A DNA stretch of 64,000 nucleotides from Deltaproteobacteria bacterium (GTDB taxonomy: Bacteria; Desulfobacterota; Desulfobulbia; Desulfobulbales; Desulfurivibrionaceae): positions 362 through 64,361 of the forward strand of contig JAPLJG010000009.1 in assembly GCA_026388735.1 (NCBI GenBank), in the 5' to 3' direction. Shown here one piece after another: positions 30,714-55,025 of the stretch (positions within the stretch are counted from its first letter, which is position 1; each line of letters begins with the position of its first letter). The notes beneath the pieces are model-generated. The model made no database searches and was not told the DNA's origin. It saw only the letters and a program-made list of their open reading frames with translations. The position numbers were made by a program, and so were the translations under genes.

Positions 30714-31199
30714 TTATTCCGCCGAATCCGTGGTGAAAACGGGCCAGCAGGCATCGTATCGCATGGGATCCTGCAATACCTGTTTGGCTAGACGCGTCTG
30801 GGGGTTGAGCGCCACCGGGCCGAGGAGGTTGGCCGTCATCCCTTCGGTGTTCTCCTTGGGGATGGTCAGGATGAGCAGGATTTCCAGGGGTTGTTCCGGC
30901 GAGCCTTGCAGTTCCTGCCGGGTCAGGCTGGAGATTTCCGGCTGGTATTGCGGGATCAGGAGGGCGGCCTGAATAGCCACAAAGGCGAGCTTTGGGTCAT
31001 CCAGGGACTGGAGCCAGAGAAACGGTGATTCTTCTCCGTGCGGCTTGACGATGAACCGTTTTGAATCAGGGAAGCCCAGAAAAGGGGAGGTCATGCTGAT
31101 GATCTTCTCCGGGTTCACTGACAGTTGGCCAAAACGGCTGGTGGACACCGTGATTTCCCCATGTTTTTCCGTGCAGGTTGTTGTGGTCATGGCGAGCAT
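30714..31199 (-). CDS. fliW: flagellar assembly factor FliW
   Basis: 161 aa. FGQLSVNPEKIISMTSPFLGFPDSKRFIV...FLWLQSLDDPKLAFV is typical of FliW. Confidence 0.9.
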   Translation of the reverse strand: MLAMTTTTCTEKHGEITVSTSRFGQLSVNPEKIISMTSPFLGFPDSKRFIVKPHGEESPFLWLQSLDDPKLAFVAIQAALLIPQYQPEISSLTRQELQGSPEQPLEILLILTIPKENTEGMTANLLGPVALNPQTRLAKQVLQDPMRYDACWPVFTTDSAE

Positions 31200-31295: not shown

Positions 31296-31562
31296 TTATT
31301 TGCCGCCTTTCAGCGGCGGTTTGGTCCGGGCCTTGTCTCCGCCAAAAACAGAAGCAAGGGAAGAAAGATCCGCAGGAGCCTCCGCTGCAGCTCTAGTGTT
31401 TTCTTCCAGGATGCGGAGGTAGATTTCTTCGCGGTGGACCATGATCTCGGTTGGGGCCTCGACCCCGATCTTCACCTGTCCGCCCTTTATCTCAAGAACC
31501 CGAATCTTTATGCCATCGCCAATGGCAATGGCTTCGCCTGGTTTTCTGGTAAGTATGAGCAT
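31296..31562 (-). CDS. csrA: carbon storage regulator CsrA (long C-terminal, FliW-partner type)
   Basis: The sequence [48 protein letters not shown], plus a ~30-aa C-terminal extension. Confidence 0.95.
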
Positions 31563-31647: not shown

Positions 31648-34600
31648 CTACTTGAGAAAGTCTACCAGGCTCAGCTGCATGGTTTTGGCGGCGGCCGACA
31701 AGGCCGCTTGGTAGGCTGTTTCTTTGCCTTTGAGTTCCAGCAAGGCCTTTGTAATATCGGTGTCTTCCTTTTCCGAGAGATTTGTCTTGGTGGACAGCTC
31801 AAGGTTTGAATAAATCTGCTGTTGGACAATGATCCGGTTCGCCCGGGCGCCAAAATCGGAGACCTGGGTAGTCAGATTCTGCATGAGGTCATCCAGCCCG
31901 GCAATGGACTTGCTGATATTGCTGACTTGGGCGTTGTCCGTTTCGCAGCCTGTGACCCGCAGGAAATTGCTGGTGTCGCCGGAGAGAGCAAAGGTGTAGC
32001 GTTCCGGGTCATTGCTGCTGATCTGGAGATGTCCGTCTGCCGACCAAGACGCGGAGATGCCGGGCACCCCATTGATGCGGCTGGCGATGTCTGACAGGGA
32101 ATCCTTGGCGGTGTCAATATTGATGGGCACCGAACTTGTTGTGGCCGGGCTGGTGTCGTGGTTGCTCACCGCAATGGTGAATGAGCCATTTTGTAATTCG
32201 TTCTCAAGTGTAAGTCCTGTTTTGCCGCTGTTCATGAAAGCGCTGGCGTCGAGAGCCTTGGCCGCGCCGTCAAGCGTTGTATAATTTTGTCCTCGCAAGG
32301 CATCCTGGAGACTTTTGAGGATAGTGAAAATGCCGGTATCCATGACAGCGGACTGGCCGTTTTTGCCCACGTCTATCGTGCTTTGCTGGCCGACCTTGAC
32401 TGCGAAATCATTTTTTCGGTCTCCGGCGTAACGGACATAGCCATTTTCGTATTCGATCTTGTTGACGAAGATTTTGCCGTCATCGGCGGTGTCTCCCGTT
32501 TGTCCGGTGACAGGGGCTCCTCCGGCAAGTCCAAGAGCGTTAAAGCCGGTTTCGTAATTTGTAACCGCTCCCACCGTGGTGGTGTTGCTGTTCATGAAGA
32601 ATTCCTTGCCGCCCCACAGGCGGAGCTCGCCGAAGTAAACCTGGTCTTGGGGGGCGGTGCCACCGTTGAGCTGAGTGACTTTTTCGCCAAGGGCACTGGT
32701 CTGGATATGAAGGTTGCGTCCGTCCATGGCAGAGAGAATAATCTGCCCGATATTGTTTCTCCCAGCCTTGATCCCGGTTTGGTCCGTTTTTGCGTTGATG
32801 GCGTTGATCAGGGTATTGCTGCTATCTCCAGAGGTTATGGCCGTTGCGTGTGAAAATATATCTATTCCGTTGATGGTGAGGTCTCCGCTTTTCAGGTAGA
32901 TCGGGGTGGAGCCATATTCGAGGGTGCCGTCCGCTGCGATATCTCCGGTGATGCCGGTGTTGGTTTCCCCGCCGCCCAGATTAAGGCCGTCAAGGATGGA
33001 ATCATCGAGAGGGTGGGTAGGACTCGAGAGCTGAAAGGCCGTTGCCGAGGAAAAGGAAACGCTGCCGGTGTTGTGTGTGGCATCGGCAGCTTGGTTGACA
33101 TTGGAGAGGCCGGTGCGCGCTATTTCAGTCGCGCTCAACCCTGCCACCACGATGGGGCTTTCGTCGCCGGTTAGGGAATTGTAAAGGACGAGAGAATCGG
33201 TAATGCCGCCATTGGTGCCGGTGCCGGTGGTGGCCATCACTCCTGTCTGCTTGCTCACTGCGTTGATGGCGCTCATCACTTGTGAGGCCACGGCGTTGTC
33301 TGTCAGCCCCGAGGCATTGACGCTGACAGTCACGCCATTGATGGTGAAGCTCGCCGCCGAAGAACCGAGGGCGGTATGGTCGGCCTTCACGCCGCTGGAG
33401 TACAGGGTGGTGAGGGAGGCGGTCACCCCGGTGGAGCCGCTGGCGGCATTGATGGCCTGTTTGGTATTATCCGCCATGCCCATATTGAGGCCATTGGTGA
33501 CGGCGCCGGCGGCAATGGCGCCCAGGGCAACGCCGTTGATGGCAAGATCGCCGGCGAGGATGCCGATGTTCTGTGGGGTGGCGACGAGTTTGCTCGTCTC
33601 GGTGCCGCTGGCCACTGCGGCAACCGCAGTGATGCTGGTGGGGGCCACGGTGGCGGAAACGCCGGTCTGGCTGGTGGCGTTGTTGATGGCTGCGGCCTTG
33701 GCCGTGGCCGAGATGTCTTGGTAGACGTCGGAGATGCCGTCGGCTACGGTGGTGATAGCCGTGCCGTTGATGTCAAGATCTCCGGAGCCTAGACGGGAAC
33801 CGTAGAGTAGAGTCCCATCGCCGGCGTTGTCGGCAAAGCCCTGGAGCCCGCCTCCCAGACCGAGAAGGTTGAGGACGGTGTCGTTCGCTGTGCTGGTGGT
33901 GATTTCAAATGCAGAGGTGGATGAGAGAGAAAGTGTGCCTGTATTGTTGTTGTTGCCAATCGCTTGGTTGATGTTGCCAAGGCCGGTTGTGGAGGCTCCG
34001 GCCACCGCATATCCGGTAATAATGATGTTTGAGTCGTTTCCGGCCAGGGTGTTGTGTAACACCACGGAATCCGCTATCCCGCCGTTGGCGCCGGTGCCTC
34101 GCGCCGCAGTGACTCCGGTACGATCACTTATGCTGTTGATGGCAGCCACAGTGGCATTGGCGGCGGCGGTGGTGGTGAGGTTGTCGTCTATGCTCACGTT
34201 GACCGGCACCCCATTGAGGTAAAAGAAGGCGTTGGTGGTGGTGCCTGGGGCGCCGCCAGGGACAGTTGCTGCTGCGCCTGCGGAGAGGGTGGTCAGCTTG
34301 GCGGTTACCCCCTCAGTGGCTTTATTGTCGGAAAGGCCGGTGATGGTCTTTTCCGTAGCGTTGAGGCCGGTGATGGTCATGGCCGAACCGTCATTCGAGC
34401 GGAGGATGATGGCATTGGCCTCCCCGCCGTTGGCGCCGGTGCCTTTGCTGGCGGTGATCGTGGAGCTGGCGAGATTGATGGCAGTGACCATTTTGTCGGC
34501 CACGGTACTGGCGTTATCCCCCGCGACGGTGGTCACATCGATTAGGTCACTATTGAGGTAAAAGGCCACCCGGGAGGCGGTGCCCGTGCCGGTTGCCGCC

Positions 34601-35346
34601 ACACCTGCGTAAGGCGAGGCAAGGGTGTCGCTGACTCCGGTCTGGGAGATGACCTTCTGATTGTTGATGGCGCTGGCGGCGTTGAAGACGCCGTCCATGT
34701 TCAGGCCGTTGACCCCGGCGTTGGTGATATCGATTGTGCCAGCAATATTTGCCACATCCACCCCGTTGATCAGCAGGTTTGTCGCAGCAATATCGACCGC
34801 CGCGCCAGTGGGGACCGTGCTGGTTAACCGGGTGGTGCTGCTGTCTGGCATGCGGCCGCCGCTGACAAAGTATCCGTCCCTGGCATCTTGAACAAAGGGG
34901 GCGGGCTCGGTCTTGGTGTAGCCGGTGGTGCGGAAGCCGCCAAAGGTGTACTTGCCGTTGACCGAGGTGTTGCCCAGAGTGATTGCCGACTCGAAAAGGT
35001 GTTGCACTTCTTCCGCAGCACTCAATCTGTTTTCCGGAGTCACGGAGGCATTGGCCAGTTGGATGGCCAGTACCTTGGCCCGGGAGGCGAGCTCCTTCAT
35101 CTGGGTGAGAGAGTTTTCCGCAGCGGTGATGGTCTTGTCGCCGAACTTGAGATTGTCCTGGTACGAGGTGATTTGGGTGAGACTGCTCCTGAGCCCAAGG
35201 GCTGTCACCAGGTTGACCGGATCATCGGAGATTGTGGACATCTGCTTTCCCGAGGAGATCTGGTTGTTGACCCGGTTCATATCCGTGGTGAGCTGGTTGA
35301 GATTCGTCAGGATATTGTTGTGGATGGACTGCATGGTGATTCGCAT
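31648..35346 (-). CDS. flgL: flagellar hook-associated protein 3 FlgL, greatly expanded (1232 aa)
   Basis: The N-terminus [15 protein letters not shown] matches the FlgL/flagellin-N pattern, and the C-terminal helix is flagellin-C-like. The gene lies directly downstream of flgK. A ~950-aa repeat-rich insert sits between the conserved termini. Confidence 0.85.
32758..34566 (-). repeat. coding tandem repeats inside flgL (three copies of one module, the first partial)
   Basis: R0 spans 34324-34566 (partial), R1 spans 33646-34227 and R2 spans 32758-33351. All three align by eye at the protein level (see findings). Confidence 0.75.
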
Positions 35347-35358
35347 GGGTTCCTCCTT

Positions 35359-38196
35359 TTACACCGCATCAAGCAGGGTCTTAAGCATCTCGTCCGACAT
35401 GGTGATGAGACGGGCGGCGGCGGTGTAGGCGTGCTGGTATTTGATCAGATTCGCCATCTCTTCATCCAGGGAAACGCCGGAGACCGAATCGCGCATTTCG
35501 CTCACCTGTTTGTTGACCAGCACCGTGGAATCGTAGGATTGGCTGACGGTGCGTGAGGTGTTGGCAACCTGGCCGACCAGGGTATTGTAAAAGCCATCTA
35601 AAGTATTCTGGGTACCGCCGGTGAAGGTAACATACTCATCGTGCTGGGCGTTCGTGATCTTGAGGGAGTTGGTGTTGTCTCCGCTATATATTTCCCCCAG
35701 TGAGTTAACGGTGGCTGCTGCCAGATTGTTGAGGTTACTCGTAATCATACTGTTCAGACCGATACTTGCCGCGCTGTTGCCGGAGAAAAAGGTGTTGAGT
35801 CCGGCAACCTGGAGAAAGTTTGAGGTGTCGTTGGCAAAGGCGAACTGGTGGGTGGCGTCCGGGGTGAGACGCAGGCTGTTGTCGGAGTTTGAGGCCGTTA
35901 CCCAGCCGCTGCTGTTGGTGGCCGCGGCAACCGTTTTATTGATGATGTTGGTGACGTCATTCAGGCTGTAAGCCCGGTCCAGGGAAATGGTGACGGGCTT
36001 GGGCATGGCCAGTGTGCCGTCGTCCTTGTTGTAGATCCAGATATCGAAACTGCCTTTGTCCGTGCTCAGTTGGTTAAAGTATTTATATCCGGAGAGCAAG
36101 GGACCTTCGGGGCCATCTTCATAGGTGAAGGTGAATTTTCCATCGTTGGCAACCGTGTCGCCAGCTACCTTGCCTACCTGAGCGGTGAAATTTCCGAAGC
36201 CGAAGATGGCACCGTTGCCCATCGTGGTGGTGAAGCTGTCCACCACGATGGGGGTGTTGTCGCCGGACGCGTTGTTCTCAAAATGGATTTTGCCGTTGAC
36301 GAGGCTCACCGTGATGGCCGGAGGTGGGGCTGGAGCGGCATTGATTCCTGCTTGGACCGCAGCCACTAGTTGGGTGGCTGACTGGTTGGCAAGAGCATTC
36401 ACCGTAATCGGTTTTCCGTTGAGATTGAAAGTGATGGTAGTGAGCGGGTTGGTGGAAGTGTTATCCACGGTGCCGCCATCATAAAAGGTGGTGGCCTGAT
36501 TGCCGCCGCCCATGCCGAGTTGTGCTAGGGTATAGTCATTGGGGCCGGCATCAACAGTGATGGTACTGGTGGAAAATAGAGTGATCTCTCCGGTGTTGTG
36601 GCTGGCATCGGCGTTGTAGGTGCCTGCGGTGAGACCGGTGGATGCTGCAAGGCCGGCCACGGAGGAGGTCAGGTTGTCAATAACGATATTTGACTCATCG
36701 CCGGGGTTGGTATTTTTCAGAACAATGGAGTTCGCCGCTCCGCCATTGGTTCCATCCCCGACTACGGCTTCGATGGTGATGGGATTGGCGGTGGTGGGCA
36801 ACGCATTATAGGTGTTCAGGGCGCTGGTGATGGCGCCGACCAGATGGCCGGCAAAGGTGGCAACATTTCCTGCCCCCACATCGCCAGCCACTACAGGGTA
36901 GCTGACCGTGACGCCGTTGATATCAAAGGAGATGGTCTTACCGATATTGGCAACACCGGGATCTGTCACTGCTGTGCCTGCCGTCAGTGTTGTCAATCGT
37001 GCTTCGACCCCGGCCTCCGCTGCGTTGATGGCGGTCACGGCATTGGCTGCCTTGGTCATGGCCAGACCCTTTACCGCTACGCCGCCAATAATCTCGCCGA
37101 CAGGCCGGTCATTGATGGTGATGGTGCCCGCCGGGATGGCCATGTTCGCAGTGGAAGCGTCTACAGGAGTTGTCAATCGCGCCACATTTTCTACCTGTTC
37201 CGAACCGGTCAGAGAATCGCCGAACACGGTTAGGCCAACCCCCTGGGAATGTTGTTGGTTGATCTCGCGGATCAGGGAGTTGGCAAATGCGTCCAGGCGG
37301 CCAAGGAAATTGTTTGGGTCGCCTTCGGCCAGATTACCGCGGACCTCGAGCCAGCCTCCGATTTTGCCGCCTAGTTCCGCTCCAGCACCAATGGGTTGGC
37401 TGGTTTCGGCGCCTTTGTTGTCTTTGCTTATCCAAAGGAGTTTGTTGTTTGCCCAGTCCACCTTTGAGGTTTGATTGCCGTCCACCAGGGTGTGGCCGTC
37501 GGCCATGAGAACAGTGTATCCGCCGTTTTTATCCTCGAAATAGGTGACGTCAAGCAGGCTGGAAAGATTCTGGACTAGGGTGTCTCTTTTGTCGCGTAAG
37601 TCGTTGGCTTGGCCTGCCGAAGATTCCGCCCCGGAAATCTGTACGTTGAGATCGGCGATCTGGCTGGTGATGGAGTTGACGTCGCCGACAGCCGTGTCAA
37701 GACTGGTGCTGATATCGAATTTGGCCTGGACCATTTGACTGGCCATGGAATGCAGCTGATCAACGATCAGCTGGGAGGACTGGATCACAGCCTGTCTGGT
37801 CGCAGGTACGTCTGGGTTGTCGGCCAAGCCTTGCCAACTGCCCCAGAATTTGCTCATCAGGTCGTTGATGGCAAGGCCCGGCGCTTCATTGAATACGGTT
37901 TCCACCAGTTTCATGGAGTCCTGCTGCGCCTGGAGGCTGCCCAGGCTTGATTCCTGGTTGGCAAGGCGTTGCACCATGAACTGGTCGTAGTTCCTCAGGA
38001 TTTTTGTGCCCGTCACGCCGCCGCCCAGCATGCCGGCGCTGATGGGGGTCGCATTGTTGGCTTCCAGTTGCAGCGATTGTCTGGTGTAGCCGGGGGTGTC
38101 AACGTTGGCGATATTGTTCGATGCCACCTGGATCGAAAGCTGGTGGGTGAGGAGCGCCTCCTTGGCGATGCTCAGTACATGGGAGATGCCGGCCAT
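35359..38196 (-). CDS. flgK: flagellar hook-associated protein 1 FlgK, expanded (945 aa)
   Basis: N-terminus LSIAKEALLTHQLSIQVASNNIANVDTPGYTRQ and C-terminus GVSLDEEMANLIKYQHAYTAAARLIT are FlgK hallmarks. The central insert contains the same module as FlgL. Confidence 0.9.
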   Translation of the reverse strand: MAGISHVLSIAKEALLTHQLSIQVASNNIANVDTPGYTRQSLQLEANNATPISAGMLGGGVTGTKILRNYDQFMVQRLANQESSLGSLQAQQDSMKLVETVFNEAPGLAINDLMSKFWGSWQGLADNPDVPATRQAVIQSSQLIVDQLHSMASQMVQAKFDISTSLDTAVGDVNSITSQIADLNVQISGAESSAGQANDLRDKRDTLVQNLSSLLDVTYFEDKNGGYTVLMADGHTLVDGNQTSKVDWANNKLLWISKDNKGAETSQPIGAGAELGGKIGGWLEVRGNLAEGDPNNFLGRLDAFANSLIREINQQHSQGVGLTVFGDSLTGSEQVENVARLTTPVDASTANMAIPAGTITINDRPVGEIIGGVAVKGLAMTKAANAVTAINAAEAGVEARLTTLTAGTAVTDPGVANIGKTISFDINGVTVSYPVVAGDVGAGNVATFAGHLVGAITSALNTYNALPTTANPITIEAVVGDGTNGGAANSIVLKNTNPGDESNIVIDNLTSSVAGLAASTGLTAGTYNADASHNTGEITLFSTSTITVDAGPNDYTLAQLGMGGGNQATTFYDGGTVDNTSTNPLTTITFNLNGKPITVNALANQSATQLVAAVQAGINAAPAPPPAITVSLVNGKIHFENNASGDNTPIVVDSFTTTMGNGAIFGFGNFTAQVGKVAGDTVANDGKFTFTYEDGPEGPLLSGYKYFNQLSTDKGSFDIWIYNKDDGTLAMPKPVTISLDRAYSLNDVTNIINKTVAAATNSSGWVTASNSDNSLRLTPDATHQFAFANDTSNFLQVAGLNTFFSGNSAASIGLNSMITSNLNNLAAATVNSLGEIYSGDNTNSLKITNAQHDEYVTFTGGTQNTLDGFYNTLVGQVANTSRTVSQSYDSTVLVNKQVSEMRDSVSGVSLDEEMANLIKYQHAYTAAARLITMSDEMLKTLLDAV

Positions 38197-38199
38197 GGC

Positions 38200-38719
38200 C
38201 TAGACCTCCCTGCTGATCAAGGAAGGTTGGTTCAAGGAAGACTTCCTGCTGAGGCCGGTGAGGCCGTACATGGGTCGGTCCGCTATCCCGCTGGTGATGA
38301 GCAATATGGCGTCGTTCAGATATGTTTTTACATCCTCGGCAAAATGCCTGTTGATCTGGTTGCGGCTGAGGATGTCTTCCCGCAGCCCTGCCAGCTTTTT
38401 CCGATTGGCCGAGTTTGTTCCCTTCTTCCGGGTTGAGCAGGGGAATGAGGGCGGCAAGTCTTGCCGGTTTGCCGGTTGCTTCCGGGTTGAACTCTGCGGC
38501 CAGGTTGGCGAGCAGGGAGTCCAGGACCTGGATGCGGCTCAGCCTGTTTTCTTTCTTGCCGCTCAAGCGGATGAGGGCCTGCATGTCCATGGCCACCAGG
38601 GCTTTTTGTTCTTCGCTCAAGATGGCGAGCATGTCCTGGGAAAGAAGGATTTCTTGGTCCAGAGCCTCGAAGAATTTGGCGGGCAGGGAGCGGTGCCCTG
38701 TGGTCTTTGAGTGTTGCAT
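38200..38719 (-). pseudogene. flgN: flgN (flagellar export chaperone) interrupted by a 1-nt frameshift
   Basis: The N-terminal ~100 aa (FFEALDQEILLSQDMLAILSEEQKALVAMDMQAL...) are in the frame starting at 38719. The plausible C-terminus (NRKKLAGLREDILSRNQINRHFAEDVKTYLNDAI...) is in the +1 frame and ends with TAG at 38200-38202, 3 nt before the flgK ATG. The switch lies around 38385-38425, which includes a T5/A5 run at 38396-38400. Confidence 0.6.
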
Positions 38720-43987: not shown

Positions 43988-44069
43988 TATGGGCGCTGTG
44001 TTAATGGTTGCATGAGTGTGTGGTCACAGGGGCAGTTGCTGCAATTATACCCGACATCAATCGGAGCGG

Positions 44070-44801
44070 ATGAAAAAAATGCAATTCGGACAGACCTTGC
44101 AGTCGGGAAGGCTTATCTTGCGGTACAAGCGGTTTCTTGCCGACGTGGAAATGGACGATGGCCGCCTGCTCACCGTGCATTGCCCGAATTCCGGCAGCAT
44201 GTCGGGCTGCAAGGAGCCTGGCAGCCCGGTGCTCATCTCCCTGGCGGACAACCCCAAGCGCAAATATCCTCATACCCTGGAGATGGTGCGGGTGGGCACG
44301 ACCTGGGTGGGGATCAACACCGCCCGCACCAATGGATTGGTCTCCGAGGCTATTCAAGCCGGGGTGGTGGCGGAACTGGCCGGGATCGAGACGATCCGGC
44401 CTGAGATTAAGGTGTCGAATAAGAGTCGGTTGGACTTTTTGCTTACCCGCGGGGAGGAGAAGATCTATCTGGAGGTGAAGAATTGTAGCCTGGCCCTGGG
44501 TAGGGCGGCCATGTTTCCCGATGCCGTGACCACCCGGGGCGCGAAGCATCTGGCCGAGCTGCTGACCCTGCGCCAAACCGGCTGTCGGGCCGTGGTTTTT
44601 TTCTGTGTCCAGCGGGAGGATGTGGATTATTTCTCTCCGGCCGGTCACATCGATCCGGGCTATGCGCAGGCTCTGCGGGAGGTGGCGGCCCTGGGGGTGG
44701 AGGTGCTGGCCTATGGCGCGGCCTTGAGCCCGGAGGCGATCACCATTGTCCGGAAGTTGCCGGTTTTTCTTGCCTCCCCTCCCTCGACGGGAGGGGATTG
44801 A
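44070..44801 (+). CDS. sfsA: sugar fermentation stimulation protein / DNA-binding nuclease SfsA
   Basis: The sequence RYKRFLADVEMDDGRLLTVHCPNSGSM...NKSRLDFLL...EVKNC is characteristic of SfsA. The start is set at MKKMQF. Confidence 0.9.
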   Translation: MKKMQFGQTLQSGRLILRYKRFLADVEMDDGRLLTVHCPNSGSMSGCKEPGSPVLISLADNPKRKYPHTLEMVRVGTTWVGINTARTNGLVSEAIQAGVVAELAGIETIRPEIKVSNKSRLDFLLTRGEEKIYLEVKNCSLALGRAAMFPDAVTTRGAKHLAELLTLRQTGCRAVVFFCVQREDVDYFSPAGHIDPGYAQALREVAALGVEVLAYGAALSPEAITIVRKLPVFLASPPSTGGD

Positions 44802-44972
44802 GGGGAGGGTGAAGTTGCCGAGAGCCTCGCCTGTGGCAAGCACCCCCACTCCCGCAGGGGGCGGGGGACTTTGTCACATAATGTATACTCGAATTTTCTC
44901 AGCTTGCTTCGCGGCAACCCTTACAATGGAGTGGGAACAGAAACTGCCGCATGGCGCGGCAACGGGAGATAT

Positions 44973-45668
44973 ATGATGCAGGAAAAACGAAAAGCCGTGG
45001 TGCTTTTGAGTGGCGGGCTTGATTCGGCCACGGTCCTGGCCATGGCCATGGCCGAGGGCTATGAGTGTTGCTGTCTCAGTTTCGCCTACGGTCAGCGCCA
45101 GCAGGTGGAGCTGGAGCGGGCCAAGGCCAATGTAGCCCGGAGGGGGATCGCAAAGCATCTCATCCTTCGCCTTGATCTCGACGCCATCGGCGGCTCGGCC
45201 CTGACCACGGATACCGCAGTGCCCAAGGGGCGCAGTCAAGCGGAGATGAACGCTTCCATCCCCATCACCTATGTGCCGGGCCGCAACACGATCTTTTTGT
45301 CCTATGCCATGGCCTGGGCCGAGGTGCTGGGCGCGGGCGATGTGTTCCTCGGGGTCAATGTCATGGATTACAGCGGCTATCCCGACTGCCGCCCGGAATT
45401 TCTCGAGGCCTTTGAGCGCATGGCCAATCTCGCCACCAGGACCGGAGTGGAAGGGGAAACCCGTTTCCGGGTCCATGCCCCGCTCCTCAAGCTGACCAAG
45501 AGGGAGATCATCGAAAAGGGGTTCGAACTCGGGGTGGATTACGGTCTGACCCATAGCTGTTATGACCCGGACCAAAAGGGCCGGGCCTGCGGCTCCTGCG
45601 ACAGCTGCCTGTTGCGGCTCAAGGGGTTTGCCGAGGCCGGGCGGGTTGATCCGGTGGAGTATCAGTGA
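44973..45668 (+). CDS. queC: 7-cyano-7-deazaguanine synthase QueC
   Basis: Contains [16 protein letters not shown] (PP-loop) and the C-terminal Zn motif [20 protein letters not shown]. The start is set at MMQEKRK. Confidence 0.95.
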
Positions 45669-46696
45669 AAATGCCCAAATGTGAAAGCAGAGAGGAAACC
45701 ATGAAGAATGCATTGGGCGGCCTGTTTATGGTCGGCCTGCCTGGGACGGAGTTGGATGATTCCACCCGCAACCTCATTAATATGTATGGGATCAATAATT
45801 TCATTCTCTTCAAGAGAAACGCCGAGAGCCCGGAGCAGATCCGCACCCTCTGTCGCGGGCTGGCTGATGCCTGCCGCGCCGCCGGGCTGGGCGCGCCGCT
45901 GATCTCCATTGATCAGGAGGGCGGCACCGTGGCCCGGCTTAAATCCCCCCATTTCACCAAATTTCCCGATGCCAGGGCGCTGGCGGAAAGCGACCGGGCC
46001 GAGGAGCTGCTGACCGATTATGCCCGGATCTGCGCCAAGGAGCTGCTGGCGGTGGGGATCAACATGAACCTGGCCCCGGTGCTGGATGTGAGCCCGGCCG
46101 GGCTGGGGTTGTTCATGGAACGACGGAGTCTGGGCGGAACCCCGGAGCAGGTGGCCCGCTTGGGTGCGCTGGTGATTGCGACCATGCAGGAGAACGGCTT
46201 GGCTGCCTGCGCCAAGCATTTTCCCGGCTTAGGCGGAGCAACCCTGGACCCCCATAAGGTACTGCCCGTGGTGGATCGTTCGCTGGCAGAGCTGCGCGGG
46301 TGTGATCTGGTGCCGTTTGCCGAGGCGATACGGGCGGGGGTGGCCGGGGTGATGACTTCCCACACCGTGTATCCGCAGCTTGATCCCGATCTGCCAGCCA
46401 CCCTGTCGCCGCAGATTTTGGGCGGAGTGCTTCGTGACGAGTTGGGCTATGACGGGATGGTGGTTACTGACGACCTGGAGATGGGGGCCATCGAGAATGA
46501 AGGCACTGTGGCGGATGCCGCCTTGGTCGCTTTTAAGGCCGGGGCGGATATGCTGCTGATCTGCCATGAGTATTCGAAGATTATTGCGGCACATAAACTA
46601 TTAAGTAAGGTGGTTGGTGGGGAGATTTCCGAGGAGAGGGTACGGAGGTCATTGGCGCGGATTGGTGCGGTACGTAGGCGGTTTGCAGGGGATTGA
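45665..46696 (+). CDS. nagZ: beta-N-acetylhexosaminidase NagZ (GH3)
   Basis: Contains [27 protein letters not shown] and [10 protein letters not shown], which are GH3/NagZ motifs. Confidence 0.85.
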
Positions 46697-47662: not shown

Positions 47663-48196
47663 ATGGAACTACAAGTTGAAGGACGGAACCTGGAAATTCG
47701 TAAGGTTTGGCAGGAAAAAATCGAAGAGGAGAAGGGGCGCCTTGATCGCCATCATCCCGGGCTTGTTCACCATCTGCGCATCTCCATTGAGGAGACCGCC
47801 GGGCATAAGACGGGCGGCCATGAGGTCCGCCTGGTTGCTTCCGTTCCCAATGACACCGTGGTTGTGAAAAGAAAAGGCGAGGCGGTGCGGCCTCTGTTGG
47901 TCGAGGCGTTTGACACCTTGGGCCTCCAGTTGAAGGAGATGCAGCGCAAGCGGCGGCAGAACGGCAAGGAGCCAGAGGCTGGGGCTGTCGGACCGGCCAT
48001 GGGCACCATCAAGAGCCTGTTCCCCTATGAGTCCTACGGGTTTCTCATGACCCCGGACGGCCAGGAGGTATATTTTCACGAGAACGCTCTCAAGGACGTG
48101 ACCATGGCCCAGTTGGCCGAAGGCGACGGGGTTCGCTTTGGCGAGGGCGAAGGGGATAAAGGGCCGACGGCGGCTTGGGTAAAGCTGGCTAAATAA
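47663..48196 (+). CDS. HPF/RaiA ribosome-associated factor fused to a cold-shock-like (CSD/OB) domain
   Basis: The N-terminal ~100 aa are S30EA/HPF-like (MELQVEGRNLEIRKVWQEKIEE...). The C-terminal ~60 aa (GTIKSLFPYESYGFLMTPDGQEVYFHENAL...GDKGPTAAWVKL) align by eye with CspA ([27 protein letters not shown]...GAKGPAAGNV). Confidence 0.8.
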   Translation: MELQVEGRNLEIRKVWQEKIEEEKGRLDRHHPGLVHHLRISIEETAGHKTGGHEVRLVASVPNDTVVVKRKGEAVRPLLVEAFDTLGLQLKEMQRKRRQNGKEPEAGAVGPAMGTIKSLFPYESYGFLMTPDGQEVYFHENALKDVTMAQLAEGDGVRFGEGEGDKGPTAAWVKLAK

Positions 48197-48222
48197 GCAA
48201 GCGAACGCGGAGTAGCACACAG

Positions 48223-48257
48223 GGCGCAAAGATACCAGGAAAAGAGATCTTTGCGCC
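48223..48257 (+). terminator. hairpin terminator candidate after the HPF-CSD gene
   Basis: GGCGCAAAGAT, a 13-nt loop, then ATCTTTGCGCC form a perfect 11-bp stem, followed by TTGGTATAT. Confidence 0.45.
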
Positions 48258-48305
48258 TTGGTATATCCGCGGTACATAAAATTTTCGGGAGAGAAGGACA
48301 GACCG

Positions 48306-49397
48306 ATGACCGTGTTGCAGCAGGTTGAGCTTGGCTCGGAATACCTGCAAGAAAAAGAAGAAATAATCTGCCAAAGGATTGCCGCCCGCAAGAAAGAGCT
48401 GGGCGGCAATCTTTTGATTTTGGGGCACCACTACCAGCAGGAGGCGACCTTCCAGTTCGCCGATCTGACCGGGGATTCCCTCAAGCTTGCCCGTAATGCC
48501 GCCGCGGCCAAGGACCGGAAGTACATCGTTTTTTGCGGCGTGCATTTCATGGCCGAATCCGCCGACATCCTGACCTCTGCGGACCAGGTGGTTATCCTTC
48601 CCGATCTCCGGGCCGGTTGCCCCATGGCCGACATGGCCGATAGCGACGAGGTGGCCTCGGCCTGGCAGGAGCTGACCGGTGTGGATACAGGCCGGGTCAT
48701 TCCCGTGACCTATGTCAACTCCTCGGCCCGGATCAAGGCCTTTGTCGGGACGCGGGGCGGTTCGGTCTGCACCTCGTCCAACGCCGAGCGGGTGCTGACC
48801 TGGGCACTCTCCCAGGGGGACAAGGTCTTTTTCTTTCCTGACGAGCATCTGGGCCGCAACTCTGCCAGCGCCTTGGGGATTCCCGAAGATGAGGTGGTGC
48901 TCTGGCAACGCGGCATGCCCTTGGGCGGCAACACCCTGGAGGCGCTGCGCAAAGCCAAGGTTATTCTCTGGAATGGCTACTGCACAGTGCACATGGAGTT
49001 TACCGCTGCCCTGTTGGACCAGTGGCGTGAGCGGGTTCCGGGAATCCGAATCATCGTGCATCCCGAGTGCCGCAACGAGGTGATGAGTCGGGCCGATCAG
49101 TATGGCTCCACCGAGGCGATTATCAAGGCGGTGGCCGACTCTTCGCCGGGTAGCAAATGGGCTATCGGTACCGAGGTCAATCTGGTGAACCGGCTCAAGA
49201 GTCAGTATCCGGATCGGGAGATCCATCTGCTTGCCCCGTCTCCGTGCCTTTGCGAGACCATGTACCGCATCCGACCGGCCAGCCTTCTCTGGGTGCTCGA
49301 CAATCTGGCCCAAGGGCGGATTGTTAATCAGATCACGGTGCCGCTCGATGTGGCGGCGGATGCTAAACTTGCCCTGGACCGGATGCTGCGGATATAA
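48306..49397 (+). CDS. nadA: quinolinate synthase NadA
   Basis: LILGHHYQQEATFQFADLTGDSLKLAR...FCGVHFMAESADIL is the NadA pattern. The start could be MTVLQQ (48306) or the upstream GTG/ATG at 48258. Confidence 0.9.
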   Translation: MTVLQQVELGSEYLQEKEEIICQRIAARKKELGGNLLILGHHYQQEATFQFADLTGDSLKLARNAAAAKDRKYIVFCGVHFMAESADILTSADQVVILPDLRAGCPMADMADSDEVASAWQELTGVDTGRVIPVTYVNSSARIKAFVGTRGGSVCTSSNAERVLTWALSQGDKVFFFPDEHLGRNSASALGIPEDEVVLWQRGMPLGGNTLEALRKAKVILWNGYCTVHMEFTAALLDQWRERVPGIRIIVHPECRNEVMSRADQYGSTEAIIKAVADSSPGSKWAIGTEVNLVNRLKSQYPDREIHLLAPSPCLCETMYRIRPASLLWVLDNLAQGRIVNQITVPLDVAADAKLALDRMLRI

Positions 49398-49439
49398 CCG
49401 GACGTTTTGTTCCTGATATGACGTAACAAGGATTTTGCC

Positions 49440-51284
49440 ATGTGTGGAATAGTTGGGTATGTGGGGCAGCGGCATGTGCTGCCCATTCTTTTGGAAGGTT
49501 TGAAGCGCCTGGAGTACCGGGGCTATGATTCGGCCGGGGTGGTGTATGTGCACGGCGGCAAGCTCCAGAAACACCGGGCTGCGGGCAAACTCGGCAAGCT
49601 CGAAGAGCTGCTGGAGACGGTGCGGGACCGCGACAGCCATATCGGCCTGGGCCATACCCGCTGGGCAACCCACGGCGCGCCTTCCGAGATCAATGCCCAT
49701 CCGCATTGCGACTGTAGCGGCGACTTGGTTGTGGTTCACAACGGGATCATCGAGAATTACCATACCCTCCGGGAAGAGCTGAAGGGACGCGGGCATGTCT
49801 TCTGCTCGGAAACCGACACCGAGGTGTTGGCCCATCTCATCGAGGAAGAGCTCTCCTCCGGCGATCTGGTTAAGGCGGTGCGCCAGGCCCTGAAAAAGGT
49901 GGAAGGCTCCTACGCCATCGGGGTTTTGTGGGCTGGCCAGCCGGACAGGCTGGTGGCGGTGAGACACCAAAGCCCGTTGGTTCTGGGGATTGCCGAGGGA
50001 GGAGGCTGCCTGATGGCCTCCGACATCCCGGCCCTGCTTCCCTACACCAATCAGGTGGTTTTTCTGGAGGATGGGGAGCTTGCCGTCCTGAAGCAGGGGG
50101 ACTGGCAGGTGATGGGTCTGGCCAGCGGCAAGAAGGTGGCCAAGGAGATCAAGACCATCGAGTGGAACGCGGCCATGGCCGAGAAGGGCGGGTATCGGCA
50201 TTTCATGCTCAAGGAGATCTTCGAGCAGCCCCAGGCCATCCTTAACACCTTCCGGGGTCGGCTCGATCCGGAAACCGGCCAGGTGCAACTGCCCGAGATT
50301 GGTCTGAGCGCGGCGGAGCTGAAAAAGATCAGCCGCATCTCCCTGGTGGCCTGCGGCACCTCCTGGCATGCGGCCCTGGTGGCCAAATACTGGCTGGAAA
50401 AATGGGTGGGCATCCCGGTGGAGGTGGATATCGCCTCGGAGTTCCGTTACCGTCGCCTGTTGCTGGACGAAACCGTGATGGTGGTGCCCATCTCCCAGTC
50501 CGGTGAAACCGCCGACACCCTGGCAGGCTTACGGCTGGCTAAGAAGATGGGGGCCAAGGTCATCGCCATCTGTAACGTCTTGGGCAGTACCATCACCCGT
50601 GAGTCCCATGGCACGATTTACACCCATGCCGGGCCGGAGATCGGGGTGGCCTCCACCAAGGCCTTCACCTGCCAGCTCACGGCCCTGTTGCTGTTCACTC
50701 TCTTTTTGGGCGAGCGCCGCAAGACTATTGCCCCCAAGGACCGCAAGGCCATTGGCCAGGCCCTCCTCGACCTGCCCGCCCTTATGGAGCAGGAGCTGCC
50801 CCGATTGCAGGAGGAAACCGCCTGCATCGCCGAGGCCTTTGCCCAGAGCCGGGATTTTCTTTATTTGGGCAGGGGAAGCAATTTCCCCATCGCCCTGGAA
50901 GGGGCCTTGAAACTCAAGGAGATATCGTACATCCATGCCGAAGGCTATGCGGCAGGCGAACTCAAGCACGGCCCCATCGCCCTCATCGACCGGGATATGC
51001 CGGTTCTGGCATTGGCCCCTCGCGACAGTGTCTACGAAAAGGTCATTTCCAACGTGGAAGAGATCAAGGCCAGAAACGGCAGGATCATTCTCGTTGCCAA
51101 TGCGGACGACAAAAACTGCAAGCGCATCGCCGAAAAGGTGATCACGGTGCCGGTCTGCCACGAGGAGTTGACCCCGATCCTCTTTGTATTGCCCTTGCAG
51201 CTGCTGGCCTATGAGATTGCCATTCTGCGCGGCTGTGATGTGGATCAGCCACGTAACCTGGCCAAGAGCGTCACGGTGGAATAG
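49440..51284 (+). CDS. glmS: glutamine--fructose-6-phosphate aminotransferase GlmS
   Basis: 614 aa. It begins MCGIVGYVG, has two SIS domains and ends ...NLAKSVTVE. Confidence 0.97.
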   Translation: MCGIVGYVGQRHVLPILLEGLKRLEYRGYDSAGVVYVHGGKLQKHRAAGKLGKLEELLETVRDRDSHIGLGHTRWATHGAPSEINAHPHCDCSGDLVVVHNGIIENYHTLREELKGRGHVFCSETDTEVLAHLIEEELSSGDLVKAVRQALKKVEGSYAIGVLWAGQPDRLVAVRHQSPLVLGIAEGGGCLMASDIPALLPYTNQVVFLEDGELAVLKQGDWQVMGLASGKKVAKEIKTIEWNAAMAEKGGYRHFMLKEIFEQPQAILNTFRGRLDPETGQVQLPEIGLSAAELKKISRISLVACGTSWHAALVAKYWLEKWVGIPVEVDIASEFRYRRLLLDETVMVVPISQSGETADTLAGLRLAKKMGAKVIAICNVLGSTITRESHGTIYTHAGPEIGVASTKAFTCQLTALLLFTLFLGERRKTIAPKDRKAIGQALLDLPALMEQELPRLQEETACIAEAFAQSRDFLYLGRGSNFPIALEGALKLKEISYIHAEGYAAGELKHGPIALIDRDMPVLALAPRDSVYEKVISNVEEIKARNGRIILVANADDKNCKRIAEKVITVPVCHEELTPILFVLPLQLLAYEIAILRGCDVDQPRNLAKSVTVE

Positions 51285-52745: not shown

Positions 52746-52949
52746 GCTGTTTTTTCTCCGTCTTGTCGGGTTTATGGCAGCGTTGGCTTGAGAATTTGCT
52801 GCTTCCATAGTAGGATGTGCCGCAGATATAGATCCGGCGAGCAGCGCAGCGTGTGCTCCATGGGTTCTGGATAAAGTATACAGCATTATTCTGCCGCCAG
52901 GCCAAGGCAAAATCAACTGGGCTTGCAGCGGCGTGCATTAGGAGCGAAG

Positions 52950-54077
52950 ATGAAGAAAAAAGCATTGATTACCGGGGTGACAGGGCAGGACGGTGCCTAT
53001 CTGGCGGAATTTCTCCTGGAGAAAGGCTACGAGGTGCATGGCCTGAAACGGCGGACCTCCCTGTTCAACACCGATCGCATCGACCATATCTTTCAGGACC
53101 CCCATGAAACAGATGTAGCCTTTATCCTGCACCATGGTGATATGACCGATTCCAGCAGCCTGATTCGGATCATCCAAAAGGTGCAGCCCGATGAGGTGTA
53201 CAACCTCGCTGCCCAGAGCCATGTGGCCGTCTCCTTCGAGGAGCCGGAATACACCGCGGATTCCGATGCCCTCGGCGCCTTGCGGATTCTGGAGGCGATC
53301 CGGATTCTGGGGCTGGAGAAAAAGACCAGATTCTACCAGGCCTCGACCTCGGAGCTGTTCGGCAAGGTGCAGGAGACCCCGCAGCGGGAAACTACCCCGT
53401 TTTATCCCCGGTCGCCCTACGCGGTGGCCAAGCTCTATGCCTACTGGATCACGGTGAACTACCGGGAGGCCTATGGGATCTATGGCTGTAACGGGATTCT
53501 GTTCAACCACGAATCCCCCATCCGCGGCGAAACCTTTGTCACCCGAAAAATCACCCGTGGCCTTGCCCGGATCGCCGTTGGCCTGCAGAGTTGCATCTAT
53601 CTCGGTAACATGAATGCCCTGCGGGACTGGGGACATGCCAAGGATTTCGTCGAGATGCAGTGGCTCATGCTCCAGCAGGAGAGCCCGGAGGATTTCGTGA
53701 TCGCCACGGGCGAACAGCACAGTGTGCGGGAGTTTGTCGAGGTGGCGGCCGGGGAGCTTGGGGTTCGGCTCCGCTGGGAGGGTGAAGGGGTTGGTGAGAT
53801 CGGTATCGTGGCCTCGCTGGCCGATGCCCCGGAAGGCACCGGCTTCACTGTGGGGCAGGCCATTGTCCGGGTGGATGCCCGCTACTTCCGGCCCACGGAG
53901 GTGGAAACCCTGTTGGGCGACCCGACTAAGGCTAAGGAAAAGCTGGGCTGGACCCCAAAGATCACCTTTGCCCAGCTGGTAACCGAGATGGTGCACGAAG
54001 ATCTTTCGATCGCTCGGCGGGATAAAATGTGCCAGCAGAGCGGATTCAAGGTTTTCAACCGGCACGAACAGCCGTAA
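52950..54077 (+). CDS. gmd: GDP-mannose 4,6-dehydratase
   Basis: [31 protein letters not shown]...[10 protein letters not shown] is classic Gmd. Confidence 0.95.
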
Positions 54078-54089
54078 TCTCTCTGGGCG

Positions 54090-55025
54090 ATGAAGATGAA
54101 GGTTCTGATAACCGGCGGCAATGGCCTGGTCGGGCGCAATTTTCGGGAGCATCCGGCGGCGGCCGGGTTCGAGATTCTGGCCCCCTCCAGCAGCGAGCTC
54201 AACCTGCTCGATTACGGGCAGGTCGCGCAGTATCTTGCCGAGCACCGGCCCGAGGTGATCATCCACGCCGCAGGCCGGGTTGGCGGGATTGAGGCGAATC
54301 TGCGGGAGCCGGTTCGGTTTTTTCTGGATAATCTCGACATGGGCCGCAATCTGGTTTGGGCCGCCCGCCAGCAGGGCGTGCCCCGCCTTATCAATCTCGG
54401 CAGCTCCTGCATGTATCCGCGCAACGCCGCCAATCCCCTGCGGGAGGAGATGATCCTCCAAGGGGAGCTGGAGCCGACCAACGAAGGCTATGCTCTGGCC
54501 AAGATCGCCACAGCCCGCCTCTGTCAGTATATCGCTCGAGAAGACCGCGGCTATGCCTATAAGACCCTGATCCCCTGCAACCTCTACGGCCGCCATGATA
54601 ATTTCGACCCGGCCAGCTCCCATCTCATCCCGGCTGTTATCCACAAGATGCACCGGGCCAGGCAGGAGAATAGGGAGACGGTGGAAATCTGGGGCGACGG
54701 CCTTGCCCGGCGGGAGTTCATGTCTGCCGGCGACCTGGCCGATTGCCTGGTCAAAGCGGTGTGCGCTTACGAAAGCCTGCCGGAGATGATGAACGTGGGG
54801 ATCGGGCAGGATTGCACCATCCTCGAATATTACCAAACGGTTGCCGAGGTGGTCGGTTTCCGGGGCACCTGTGTGCACAATCTGGCCAAGCCCGTGGGCA
54901 TGCAGCGCAAACTCGTCGATGTGACCCGGGCAGCCGCTTGGGGCTGGACCGCCCAAACCTCGCTTAAGCACGGCATCGGGCAGGCGTATGACTATTACTT
55001 GCAACAGCAGGAGCACGGAGCATGA
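54090..55025 (+). CDS. GDP-4-keto-6-deoxy-hexose epimerase/reductase (GDP-L-fucose synthase family; Fcl or ColC)
   Basis: 311 aa. GSSCMYP, EPTNEGYALAKI and SSHLIPAVI match the Fcl/WcaG catalytic motifs. The adjacent colD-like gene suggests a ColC role. Confidence 0.85.
   Translation: MKMKVLITGGNGLVGRNFREHPAAAGFEILAPSSSELNLLDYGQVAQYLAEHRPEVIIHAAGRVGGIEANLREPVRFFLDNLDMGRNLVWAARQQGVPRLINLGSSCMYPRNAANPLREEMILQGELEPTNEGYALAKIATARLCQYIAREDRGYAYKTLIPCNLYGRHDNFDPASSHLIPAVIHKMHRARQENRETVEIWGDGLARREFMSAGDLADCLVKAVCAYESLPEMMNVGIGQDCTILEYYQTVAEVVGFRGTCVHNLAKPVGMQRKLVDVTRAAAWGWTAQTSLKHGIGQAYDYYLQQQEHGA

Follow-up and report, generated by a model that had tools for sequence, protein, structure and literature searches.

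The window analysed here is a stretch of 64,000 nucleotides in which two flagellar genes lie side by side and co-oriented on the minus strand: flgK (35359-38196), with a product of 945 aa, and directly downstream of it flgL (31648-35346), with a product of 1232 aa. The FlgK product is matched by the model for hook-associated protein 1 (TIGR02492, 334.1 bits against a cut-off of 170.75) and the FlgL product by that for hook-associated protein 3 (TIGR02550, 175.1 bits against 127.2). FlgK also matches PF22638 (E=3.5e-51), PF06429 and PF00460, with FlgK_D1 at residues 97-323 and Flg_bbr_C at residues 905-943, and the termini of FlgL match Flagellin_N (PF00669) and Flagellin_C (PF00700). Thiovibrio sp. 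JS02, a cultured carrier of the cassette described below, has the same flgK-flgL synteny, with a FlgK of 955 aa and a FlgL of 1220 aa; in T. frasassiensis, also in culture, FlgK has 846 aa. Both proteins of the window are true orthologues of FlgK and FlgL. The flagellin and the hook protein of the organism are not encoded in the window.

A full-length AlphaFold model of FlgK (pLDDT 84.1) gave the FlgK structures 5xbj, 9go6 and 9gsx_L as its top Foldseek matches. Searches with the whole protein were dominated by the conserved core, and the cassette described below was consequently modelled separately. The outer region of FlgK is inserted after FlgK_D1, between the D1 helical domain and the C-terminal core, and the outward-facing domains of FlgK occupy this same place in solved structures.

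Architecture of the shared outer region

The unit shared by the two proteins is an "A+B" cassette, in which an IN-motif unit of ~75 aa (A) is followed by a module of ~140 aa (B). The units run in the order A-B-C-D in FlgK and A-B(partial)-B-A-A-B-C-D in FlgL, at the following positions:

36937..37164, minus strand: FlgK unit A (aa 345-420), short IN-motif unit, ITINDRPVG...AINAAEAGVEARLTTL; hhalign 99.5% to FlgL A3 and 98.3% to FlgL A1; weak Pfam Flagellin_IN match (E=0.015)
36481..36936, minus strand: FlgK unit B (aa 421-572), motifs GDGTNGG, HNTG and LGxGGG; hhalign 100% to FlgL B (E=2.9e-45); HMM 188.8 bits
36097..36444, minus strand: FlgK unit C (aa 585-700), degenerate second B-like copy; hhalign 98.6% to FlgL B and 96.6% to FlgK B
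35779..36063, minus strand: FlgK unit D (aa 712-806), outer domain common to FlgL unit D; BLASTP E=4e-6, hhalign 99.8% (E=8e-28)
34579..34800, minus strand: FlgL unit A1 (aa 183-256); hhalign 98.3% to FlgK A and 99.7% to A3
34231..34581, minus strand: FlgL unit B1 (aa 256-372), truncated B copy with the tail of an A unit behind it; B-HMM 25.1 bits, profile positions 4-106
33811..34230, minus strand: FlgL unit B2 (aa 373-512), repeat R1 of the first-pass annotation; B-HMM 138.8 bits
33577..33795, minus strand: FlgL unit A2 (aa 518-590); hhalign 96.9% to A3 and 96.7% to unit C
33355..33561, minus strand: FlgL unit A3 (aa 596-664); hhalign 99.5% to FlgK A; Flagellin_IN E=0.0036
32947..33354, minus strand: FlgL unit B3 (aa 665-800), repeat R2 of the same annotation; B-HMM 150.3 bits
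32467..32895, minus strand: FlgL unit C (aa 818-960), ancestral-type IN-motif outer domain; Flagellin_IN 28.7 bits
31939..32199, minus strand: FlgL unit D (aa 1050-1136), Flagellin_IN at residues 1055-1113; hhalign 99.8% to FlgK D

Similarity between the two proteins is seen with both pairwise and profile methods. The best BLASTP match joins FlgK 312-646 to FlgL 554-888 (33% identity over 358 columns, E=7e-14) and contains FlgL B3; two further matches join FlgK 391-548 to FlgL 341-482, the R1 region (E=2e-9), and FlgK 340-524 to FlgL 173-349, which covers B1 (E=3e-8). When the FlgK module family was compared with the FlgL module family, hhalign returned a probability of 100% (E=2.9e-45). In shuffle controls, FlgK residues 340-650 scored 60.8 bits against 18.8 +/- 2.3 (maximum 26.9) for 100 shuffles, and residues 422-622 scored 38.9 bits against a shuffled maximum of 23.5. 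Because the shuffles (all below 27 bits) stay far below the real score, the similarity is not an effect of composition, and an artefact of Ala/Gly/Ser/Thr/Asn-rich sequence is ruled out. The first-pass annotation, which had proposed that one module occurs in both junction proteins, was thus right on this point, and the HMM-HMM similarity that it had named as a test is significant. The span it gave, 36331-36933 on the minus strand, indeed corresponds to FlgK residues 422-622, the peptides it quoted are present, and FlgK has the stated 945 aa. This span takes in the B module and the first third of the next unit; what is shared, however, is wider, and includes the upstream A (FlgK 345-420, 99.5%) and also the downstream D (712-806 against FlgL 1050-1136, 99.8%).

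Domain class and fold of the cassette

Hook-associated proteins and flagellins carry one to five IN motifs (PMC9751261). As in the corresponding family PF07196 (Flagellin_IN), each unit here starts with a strand, the 'IN' helix and a strand, and the ~75-aa A unit is made up of a beta strand, this helix and strands. Whole FlgL scores 39 bits against Flagellin_IN over four stretches, and its units C (28.7 bits) and D lie above the gathering score of 22.7. That threshold is not reached by FlgK A (15.9 bits), FlgL A3 (17.9 bits) or B (15.0 bits at best), and FlgK B does not match PF07196 at all. B also differs from the family in extending ~90 aa past the 55-aa motif, in having motifs of its own (GDGTNGG, HNTG, LGxGGG) and in its rarity as a sequence family, with only 38 clusters in 1.84 billion proteins.

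Direct assignment of B by sequence to a Pfam family or a solved structure gave nothing significant, and the link was therefore made through FlgL C and a fold search. FlgL C aligns with B in hhalign (97.9%, E=5.9e-13) and is matched by phmmer to H. pylori FlaA (9ygu, E=1.2e-7) and C. jejuni FlaA (6x80, E=1.8e-5). An AlphaFold model of A+B (pLDDT 92.4, pTM 0.87) predicts that A and B fold together as a single compact body. Its best Foldseek matches are C. jejuni FlaA (6x80, E=8e-6) and H. pylori FlaA (9ygu, E=2e-5) and FlaB (9yh1, E=5e-5), each with probability 1.00, followed by outer domains of FliD, FliC and FlgE. Over D2-D4 of C. jejuni FlaA the TM-score is 0.28-0.32, with an rmsd of ~11 A over ~250 columns; at a TM-score of ~0.3, the likeness would be one of domain class, not of domain arrangement. 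Like the D2-D4 domains of these flagellins (6X80, 9YGU, 9YH1), the units here are tandem, internally duplicated beta/alpha domains, predicted to lie on an axial surface. Unlike them, they are carried by 11+11 junction subunits and not by a filament protein with its thousands of copies; the sequences are 14-19% identical.

B is a diverged, lineage-specific outer domain of the Flagellin_IN beta/alpha type, and the cassette is probably an old relative of the domains that make up the outer part of flagellins in Campylobacter and Helicobacter. The first reading of the module must be qualified in one respect: it is not an orphan, given the hhalign probability of 97.9% to FlgL C and the Foldseek probability of 1.00. 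The class has been described structurally, and its role is only partly known, so that the objection foreseen by the first-pass annotation, a match to a characterised domain family of known role, applies by half only. Matches of single units to FIST_N (E=5e-4) and a CAF17 beta-barrel (E=0.002) were below threshold and unreproduced in homologues, and were set aside as chance.

Two further flagellins are of use for comparison. That of Geovibrio thiophilus (9AU6; PMC11532411) is a precedent for outer domains derived from recombined domains of flagellar genes: its D4 is related to FliD D2, its D5 duplicates D4, and the fold of its D2 is seen in hook-associated proteins (PMC11532411). There, however, the recipient is the flagellin and not the junction proteins, the domains are different, and no spread to non-flagellar proteins is reported; 9au6 matches the full-length FlgK model weakly in Foldseek (E=3e-6, probability 0.57, TM-score 0.08). 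The beta-domain of flagellin p5 of Sphingomonas sp. A1 (2ZBI, 3K8W) has one IN motif, weak matches to FlgL C (E=0.02) and weak structural matches, and resembles phage baseplate and sheath decoration domains, as does the module here. It is, in contrast, a single domain in an alginate-binding flagellin, and the likeness is marginal. In BFVD the only matches were weak ones, to decoration domains of phage baseplates and sheaths; they are in line with published work and say nothing on function.

Distribution and history of the cassette

Word-indexed searches returned 6 matches for the module and 1 for the profile, because low-complexity words filled the candidate list, and they were replaced by HMMER, run exhaustively on 1.84 billion proteins. 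The B module family was found in only 38 clusters, and all those that could be placed taxonomically belong to Desulfurivibrionaceae or to Thiovibrio relatives. About 22 clusters are FlgL (up to 5 copies and up to 1812 aa), about 8 are FlgK, and 4 are non-flagellar giants with DUF4347. No flagellin was found among the matches to the module profile in the 1.84 billion proteins. The carriers are also organisms with thick flagella and a life on solid sulfur.

The two junction proteins differ in copy number. Each FlgK cluster has one full copy, without exception, and A-B-D is present in 32/32 FlgKs; unit C is restricted to the ~945-aa class of FlgK and is missing from FlgKs of ~840 aa. Every FlgK found in Desulfurivibrionaceae and Thiovibrio relatives has the order core-A-B-(B')-D-core. 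Among 29 FlgLs, the smallest (650-691 aa, 5 species) have A-C-D and the largest has 1447 aa, and another FlgL reaches 1812 aa; those without a B module are at loci of related genomes (e.g. 650 aa). In its minimal form FlgL is core-A-C-D-core; tandem duplication has supplied it with 0 to 5 A+B cassettes, and loss has removed them again. Since five species have no B in FlgL, the FlgL copies are dispensable. Across 67 FlgKs, identity is 58% in A, 50% in B and 62% in D, compared with 62-64% in the axial core. These values indicate that A, B and D of FlgK are under purifying selection, unlike typical hypervariable flagellin domains.

Because flgK and flgL are adjacent and co-oriented, recent or ongoing exchange of the module between them by gene conversion, as the first-pass annotation had envisaged, would be conceivable, and a species with two sister FlgL copies (L032) indicates that recent duplication within FlgL does occur. 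However, blastn with word size 7 found nothing longer than ~39 nt between the two genes, and matches between and within them are short (27-65 nt, 71-100% identity). Identity between FlgK and FlgL modules averages 37% and never exceeds 50%, and in all genomes sampled the FlgK copies (36 sequences) group as a single clade, separate from every FlgL copy (bootstrap 55/60). Recent gene conversion is ruled out by the blastn result, and we consider the whole idea of recent or ongoing exchange very improbable. Instead, the missing DNA similarity and the separate FlgK clade indicate that the sharing is ancient, with FlgK and FlgL copies having probably split once and been inherited vertically since.

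A further question is whether an insertion took place at all. In one reading, FlgK A-B-D and FlgL A-C-D go back to one ancient event in which the outer region as a whole took shape, and the B modules of FlgL are later internal products. The minimal FlgL, A-C-D, is indeed colinear with FlgK A-B-D, and homology is detected at each position (A 99.5%; B/C 97.9%, for FlgL B against FlgL C; D 99.8%). In a tree rooted on C, moreover, FlgL B is nearer to C (distance 2.05 vs 2.77) and the FlgK clade is nested among FlgL copies. That rooting comes from ~130 saturated columns and neighbour-joining only, and it hints, weakly, at an origin of the module in FlgL. However, FlgL B is far nearer to FlgK B (E=2.9e-45) than to FlgL C (E=5.9e-13), so that B must still have passed from one gene to the other at a later time, at least once. 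Descent from one colinear ancestor is thus a possibility that we hold tentatively, as the less probable course of events.

The cassette is also found outside the flagellum, in the giant proteins P0154-P0156 and P0158 and in a 2474-aa ORF of L035. These carriers are of DUF4347, FG-GAP, PD40 and cadherin-like types, and their genes adjoin OEP/HlyD (TolC/HlyD-type) export genes. In one such protein the 230 aa lie cleanly inside a loop of the repeat domain, which bears out the notion of the cassette as a transferable insert. It was inserted once into a loop of the DUF4347/FG-GAP/cadherin-like giants.

Proposed role at the hook-filament junction

The hook-filament junction is known to hold 11+11 subunits (PMC12221982). 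As in the two-layer 11+11 junction of Campylobacter (FlgK 608 aa, FlgL 750 aa; 9GSX, PMC12221982), the proteins described here exceed those of Salmonella (FlgK 553 aa, FlgL 317 aa) by additional outer domains. They are, however, far larger (945 and 1232 aa, with relatives of up to 1812 aa), and one amplified cassette is common to both; only the cores align with the Campylobacter proteins by sequence.

We consider it probable, with moderate confidence, that the cassette is a lineage-specific outer-domain unit that forms a structural collar at the hook-filament junction. Like other outer domains, it would leave the cell in unfolded form by the flagellar type III channel and would fold outside; from topology alone (insertion after FlgK_D1), it is expected to project radially from the D0/D1 core. 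Together, 11 FlgK and 11 FlgL subunits would contribute ~16,000 extra residues (roughly 1.6 MDa), giving a thick, acidic collar whose size would be set by the FlgL copy number. Such a collar could carry the outer layer on from the hook to a thick filament and reinforce it, much as the additional domains of FlgE, FlgK and FlgL do in Campylobacter. The cultured relative Desulfurivibrio dismutans is reported to have 'thick' flagella (PMC12142623), and the construction of flagellar outer domains from domains of other flagellar genes is known (PMC11532411). A purely mechanical role does not, however, explain the presence of the same cassette in non-flagellar, adhesin-like proteins.

These proteins are the starting point for a different reading, in which the cassette serves for binding or adhesion (to elemental sulfur, a mineral or a polysaccharide), the junction is an adhesive collar, and the sharing with secreted giant adhesins follows from this function. 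A+B is found in the DUF4347, FG-GAP, PD40 and cadherin-like giants beside OEP/HlyD genes, the loop motifs GxGxNGG and HNTG are kept in FlgK, FlgL and non-flagellar copies, and the modules are acidic (pI ~4.1). For the Geovibrio flagellin, mineral adhesion has been proposed for a negatively charged flagellar surface (PMC11532411), and Sphingomonas flagellin p5, with its IN-motif beta-domain, binds alginate (PMC9751261); the carriers themselves disproportionate sulfur and use solid S0. However, the conserved Gly/Asn motifs may be mere structural turns, no ligand or binding site was found, and domains of giant adhesins are often only spacers. With 22 subunits per flagellum, at the cell-proximal end of the filament, the position is also a poor one for an adhesin. 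We therefore regard adhesion as unlikely, and as distinctly unlikely the more specific proposal that A+B is a functional binding module (e.g. for elemental sulfur/polysulfide, a mineral surface or exopolysaccharide) deployed by sulfur-disproportionating Desulfurivibrionaceae both on the junction collar and on secreted giant adhesins. If it were true, the junction would be an attachment or contact-sensing device and not a passive adaptor.

The cassette could also serve mainly as a carrier of O-linked glycans or as a variable antigenic surface, as outer domains do in the flagellins of Campylobacter and Helicobacter. The flagellin outer domains of C. jejuni and H. pylori, which are its best structural matches, are indeed heavily glycosylated, Ser and Thr together make up 20-27% of the modules, the FlgL copy number is highly variable, and sugar-nucleotide genes (GDP-mannose dehydratase, epimerase, DegT aminotransferase) lie 15-18 kb away. 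However, the axial core is equally rich in Ser/Thr (17-20%), and the module comes close to the core in conservation, which speaks against diversifying selection. No glycosyltransferase or Maf/Pse-type gene was found in the Pfam-scanned parts of the window, the flagellar cluster included. We hold this role to be more doubtful still than a binding function. On the present analysis, a structural role for the cassette, as in the proposed collar, appears the most likely.

The cassette is a new example of a known route of flagellar growth and not a new kind of system; the finding is at present descriptive and demonstrates no new mechanism. The junction is usually seen as a small, invariant adaptor; in these bacteria, more than 1.5 MDa of additional, conserved surface domains are predicted to sit on it. 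The FlgL copy number of 0 to 5 in related species is a natural series for the function of junction outer domains (mechanics, attachment, glycan display). The clean insertion into adhesin-like proteins indicates that flagellar outer domains can leave the flagellar system, and such escape bears on the evolution of the domain repertoires of flagella and surface proteins.

Flagellar operon and its surroundings

The flagellar operon that holds the shared module lies on the minus strand of the window, in the order flgF, flgG, flgA, flgH, flgI, a rod-binding flgJ-like gene, flgN, flgK, flgL, csrA and fliW, with flgM on the opposite strand and polA beyond flgM.

Genes of the junction-protein end of the operon
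35359-38196, minus strand: flgK
31648-35346, minus strand: flgL
31296-31562, minus strand: csrA, directly downstream of flgL
30714-31199, minus strand: fliW, after csrA

Gene order is identical in the complete genome of Thiovibrio sp. JS02 (FlgK 955 aa, 70% identity to the window FlgK; FlgL 1220 aa), including csrA and fliW downstream of flgL, a partner-switching pair that controls flagellin translation in several bacteria. Close relatives are all Desulfurivibrionaceae, Thiovibrio or Desulfobulbia genomes. The flgN product is the export chaperone of FlgK and FlgL. In the window, flgN (38203-38719, minus strand) is apparently frameshifted, with the frame changing near 38400-38406 at 'ggccaa-t-cggaaaaag': residues 3-98 of Thiovibrio JS02 FlgN match one frame and residues 100-166 the next, where the alignment stops just short of the flgK ATG. 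The listed 206-aa flgN ORF instead extends 98 nt into flgK, with an Arg/His/Pro-rich tail. Either a mistake in the assembly or a genuine indel may explain the frameshift.

A plus-strand sugar-nucleotide cluster (52923-56203; GDP-mannose 4,6-dehydratase, NAD-dependent epimerase and DegT/EryC1 aminotransferase) lies downstream of GlmS (49440-51284) and may be connected with glycosylation of the flagellum. Four long minus-strand ORFs lacking Pfam matches (48189-50369, 52938-55043, 54995-56143 and 44001-45713) overlie well-supported plus-strand genes (GlmS, Gmd, DegT and QueC); in this GC-rich genome such antisense ORFs are probably spurious.

A module shared by FlgK and FlgL

The first-pass annotation held that FlgK and FlgL carry the same insert, and the peptides it cited in FlgK are present (window 36331-36933, FlgK residues 422-622). 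Both proteins are bona fide members of their families. By BLASTP, FlgK 312-646 aligns to FlgL 554-888 over 358 columns with 33% identity (E=7e-14), two more FlgL regions match FlgK (E=2e-9 and 3e-8), and a separate C-terminal pair was found (FlgK 702-802 and FlgL 1043-1136, E=4e-6). The FlgK segment scored 60.8 bits, versus at most 26.9 bits in 100 shuffles. The HMM-HMM comparison that the annotation had proposed, of the FlgK and FlgL module families, gave a probability of 100% (E=2.9e-45). Four kinds of related unit compose the outer regions of both proteins.

Units of the FlgK and FlgL outer regions
Unit A, ~75 aa: xLxINGxxIG...AIN...TGVxAxLTTL
Unit B, ~140 aa: the module first annotated; F.INGV.V, a long helix, then strands with loop motifs
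Unit C, ~143 aa: related to B, but more canonical
Unit D, ~90 aa: C-terminal outer domain common to FlgK and FlgL

Three loop motifs on the strands of unit B are invariant: GxGxNGG, HNTG and D..L..LGxGGG. FlgK is built as A-B-C'-D, its C' being a degenerate copy of B (hhalign 98.6%), and FlgL as A-B(partial)-B-A-A-B-C-D. Because units A (99.5%) and D (99.8%) are also common to both proteins by hhalign, the shared region extends past the interval first annotated. The entire FlgK outer region is colinear with the final four FlgL units.

Neither Pfam nor the PDB gave a significant sequence match to module B. The connection to known flagellin domains runs through FlgL unit C, which exceeds the Pfam Flagellin_IN cut-off (28.7 vs 22.7 bits), matches the outer domains of FlaA from H. 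pylori (9ygu, E=1.2e-7) and from C. jejuni (6x80, E=1.8e-5), and aligns with B over 124 columns (97.9% probability). AlphaFold gave confident models, with a pLDDT of 84.1 for full-length FlgK (80-96 across the insert) and 92.4 for the cassette of A followed by B alone (pTM 0.87). The best Foldseek matches of this cassette in the PDB were the flagellins of C. jejuni (FlaA) and, after it, H. pylori (FlaA and FlaB), all at probability 1.00 and E 8e-6 to 5e-5. TM-scores were low (~0.3), so the match is one of domain class, not of domain arrangement. Next came FliD of H. pylori, FliC of P. aeruginosa and FlgE of C. jejuni, and decoration domains of phage sheaths or baseplates were also among the fold matches. 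The module falls within an already described structural class of flagellar outer domain. Hook-associated proteins and flagellins contain one to five IN motifs (PMC9751261), and domains of other flagellar genes can build flagellar outer domains (PMC11532411).

Distribution and history

When the B profile was run exhaustively with HMMER against 1.84 billion representative proteins, only 38 reached E<=1e-3: ~22 FlgL, ~8 FlgK, a few fragments and four non-flagellar proteins, with no flagellin, FliD or FlgE among them. The non-flagellar carriers (P0154, P0155, P0156, P0158 and a 2474-aa ORF in the related genome locus L035, 6329-13753, plus strand) combine an N-terminal DUF4347, FG-GAP or PD40 repeats, cadherin-like repeats and an acidic tail, which in these giant proteins terminates in LLQC[NK]. 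All of them bear a single A+B cassette of flagellar type, set cleanly into a repeat loop as a 230-aa insertion. The L035 gene is flanked by a FecR-domain gene, a gene for a TolC-like OEP protein and three genes of the HlyD family, including a fusion to an M50 peptidase domain. In the L035 protein the cassette splits one copy of a repeated domain; once it is cut out in silico, that copy aligns without a break to two paralogous repeats (score 354 instead of 210 for one, 279 instead of 191.5 for the other). On this evidence the cassette is a self-contained insertion domain and has left the flagellar system on at least one occasion.

In FlgK, A-B-D is present in every protein recovered, with a second B-like unit in 8/32. 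Relatives' FlgKs fall into two length classes, ~840 aa and ~945 aa, differing by an extra degenerate B-like unit (FlgK aa 585-700, window 36097-36444); the window FlgK is of the long class. FlgL architecture is highly variable among relatives.

FlgL forms among relatives
A-C-D: no B module, 650-691 aa, five species scattered over the tree
A-B-A-C-D: ~900 aa
A-B-A-A-B-C-D: ~1115 aa

The largest FlgLs in related loci have 1433-1447 aa (L012, L037), and a metagenomic FlgL of 1812 aa (P0128 is among the large homologues) has four full B modules and two C-type units. Junction proteins of solved structure are all far smaller than these FlgLs of 1433-1812 aa.

No nucleotide similarity beyond short matches was found between or within flgK and flgL. 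A tree was built from 83 B modules, covering 38 related genome loci as well as the window. All FlgK copies (36/36) fall into a single clade (bootstrap 55/60) and the four non-flagellar copies into a second (58/60); FlgL copies are paraphyletic. Mean identity is 52% among FlgK copies, 45% among FlgL copies and 37% between the two. Taken together, the lack of DNA similarity, the single FlgK clade and the low FlgK-FlgL identity place the divergence of the FlgK and FlgL copies in one event, before the sampled species separated. The first-pass annotation was thus confirmed and extended as an observation and was partly right in its interpretation: the insert is modular and common to both proteins, but recent or ongoing exchange between the adjacent genes is contradicted by the tree, the identities and the nucleotide comparison, and the sharing is ancient. 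FlgL copies of B group in position-specific clades, showing that FlgL duplications are mostly old, and sister FlgL copies within one species indicate recent duplication there. With C-unit rooting, FlgL copies lie nearer the root than FlgK copies, a weak signal hinting that B originated in FlgL and then moved to FlgK.

Proposed role at the junction

The FlgK insert sits after the D1 helical domain, the site of outward-facing domains in solved FlgK structures, and is acidic (pI ~4.1); it lacks Cys and is rich in Ser/Thr/Asn/Gly. Across 67 FlgKs, identity is 58% in A, 50% in B and 62% in D, against 62-64% in the axial core; conservation almost like that of the core points to purifying selection rather than hypervariability. 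Given a junction of 11+11 subunits (PMC12221982), the outer regions would add ~16,000 residues, which would make up a thick collar where the hook meets the filament; FlgL copy number would tune its size. "Thick" flagella have been described for a cultured relative (PMC12142623). We favor a structural role for the cassette, in bracing or diameter-matching, by analogy with the enlarged Campylobacter axial proteins. A binding role is a less likely candidate, suggested by the presence of the cassette in adhesin-like proteins, where the loop motifs are conserved too. A glycan carrier is possible, but the flagellar cluster yielded no glycosylation genes.

The shared module is a lineage-restricted variant of a known phenomenon, in which flagellar axial proteins gain outer domains and duplicate them. 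What is unusual is that the amplification is located in the junction proteins, and that the cassette has spread to giant non-flagellar surface proteins.
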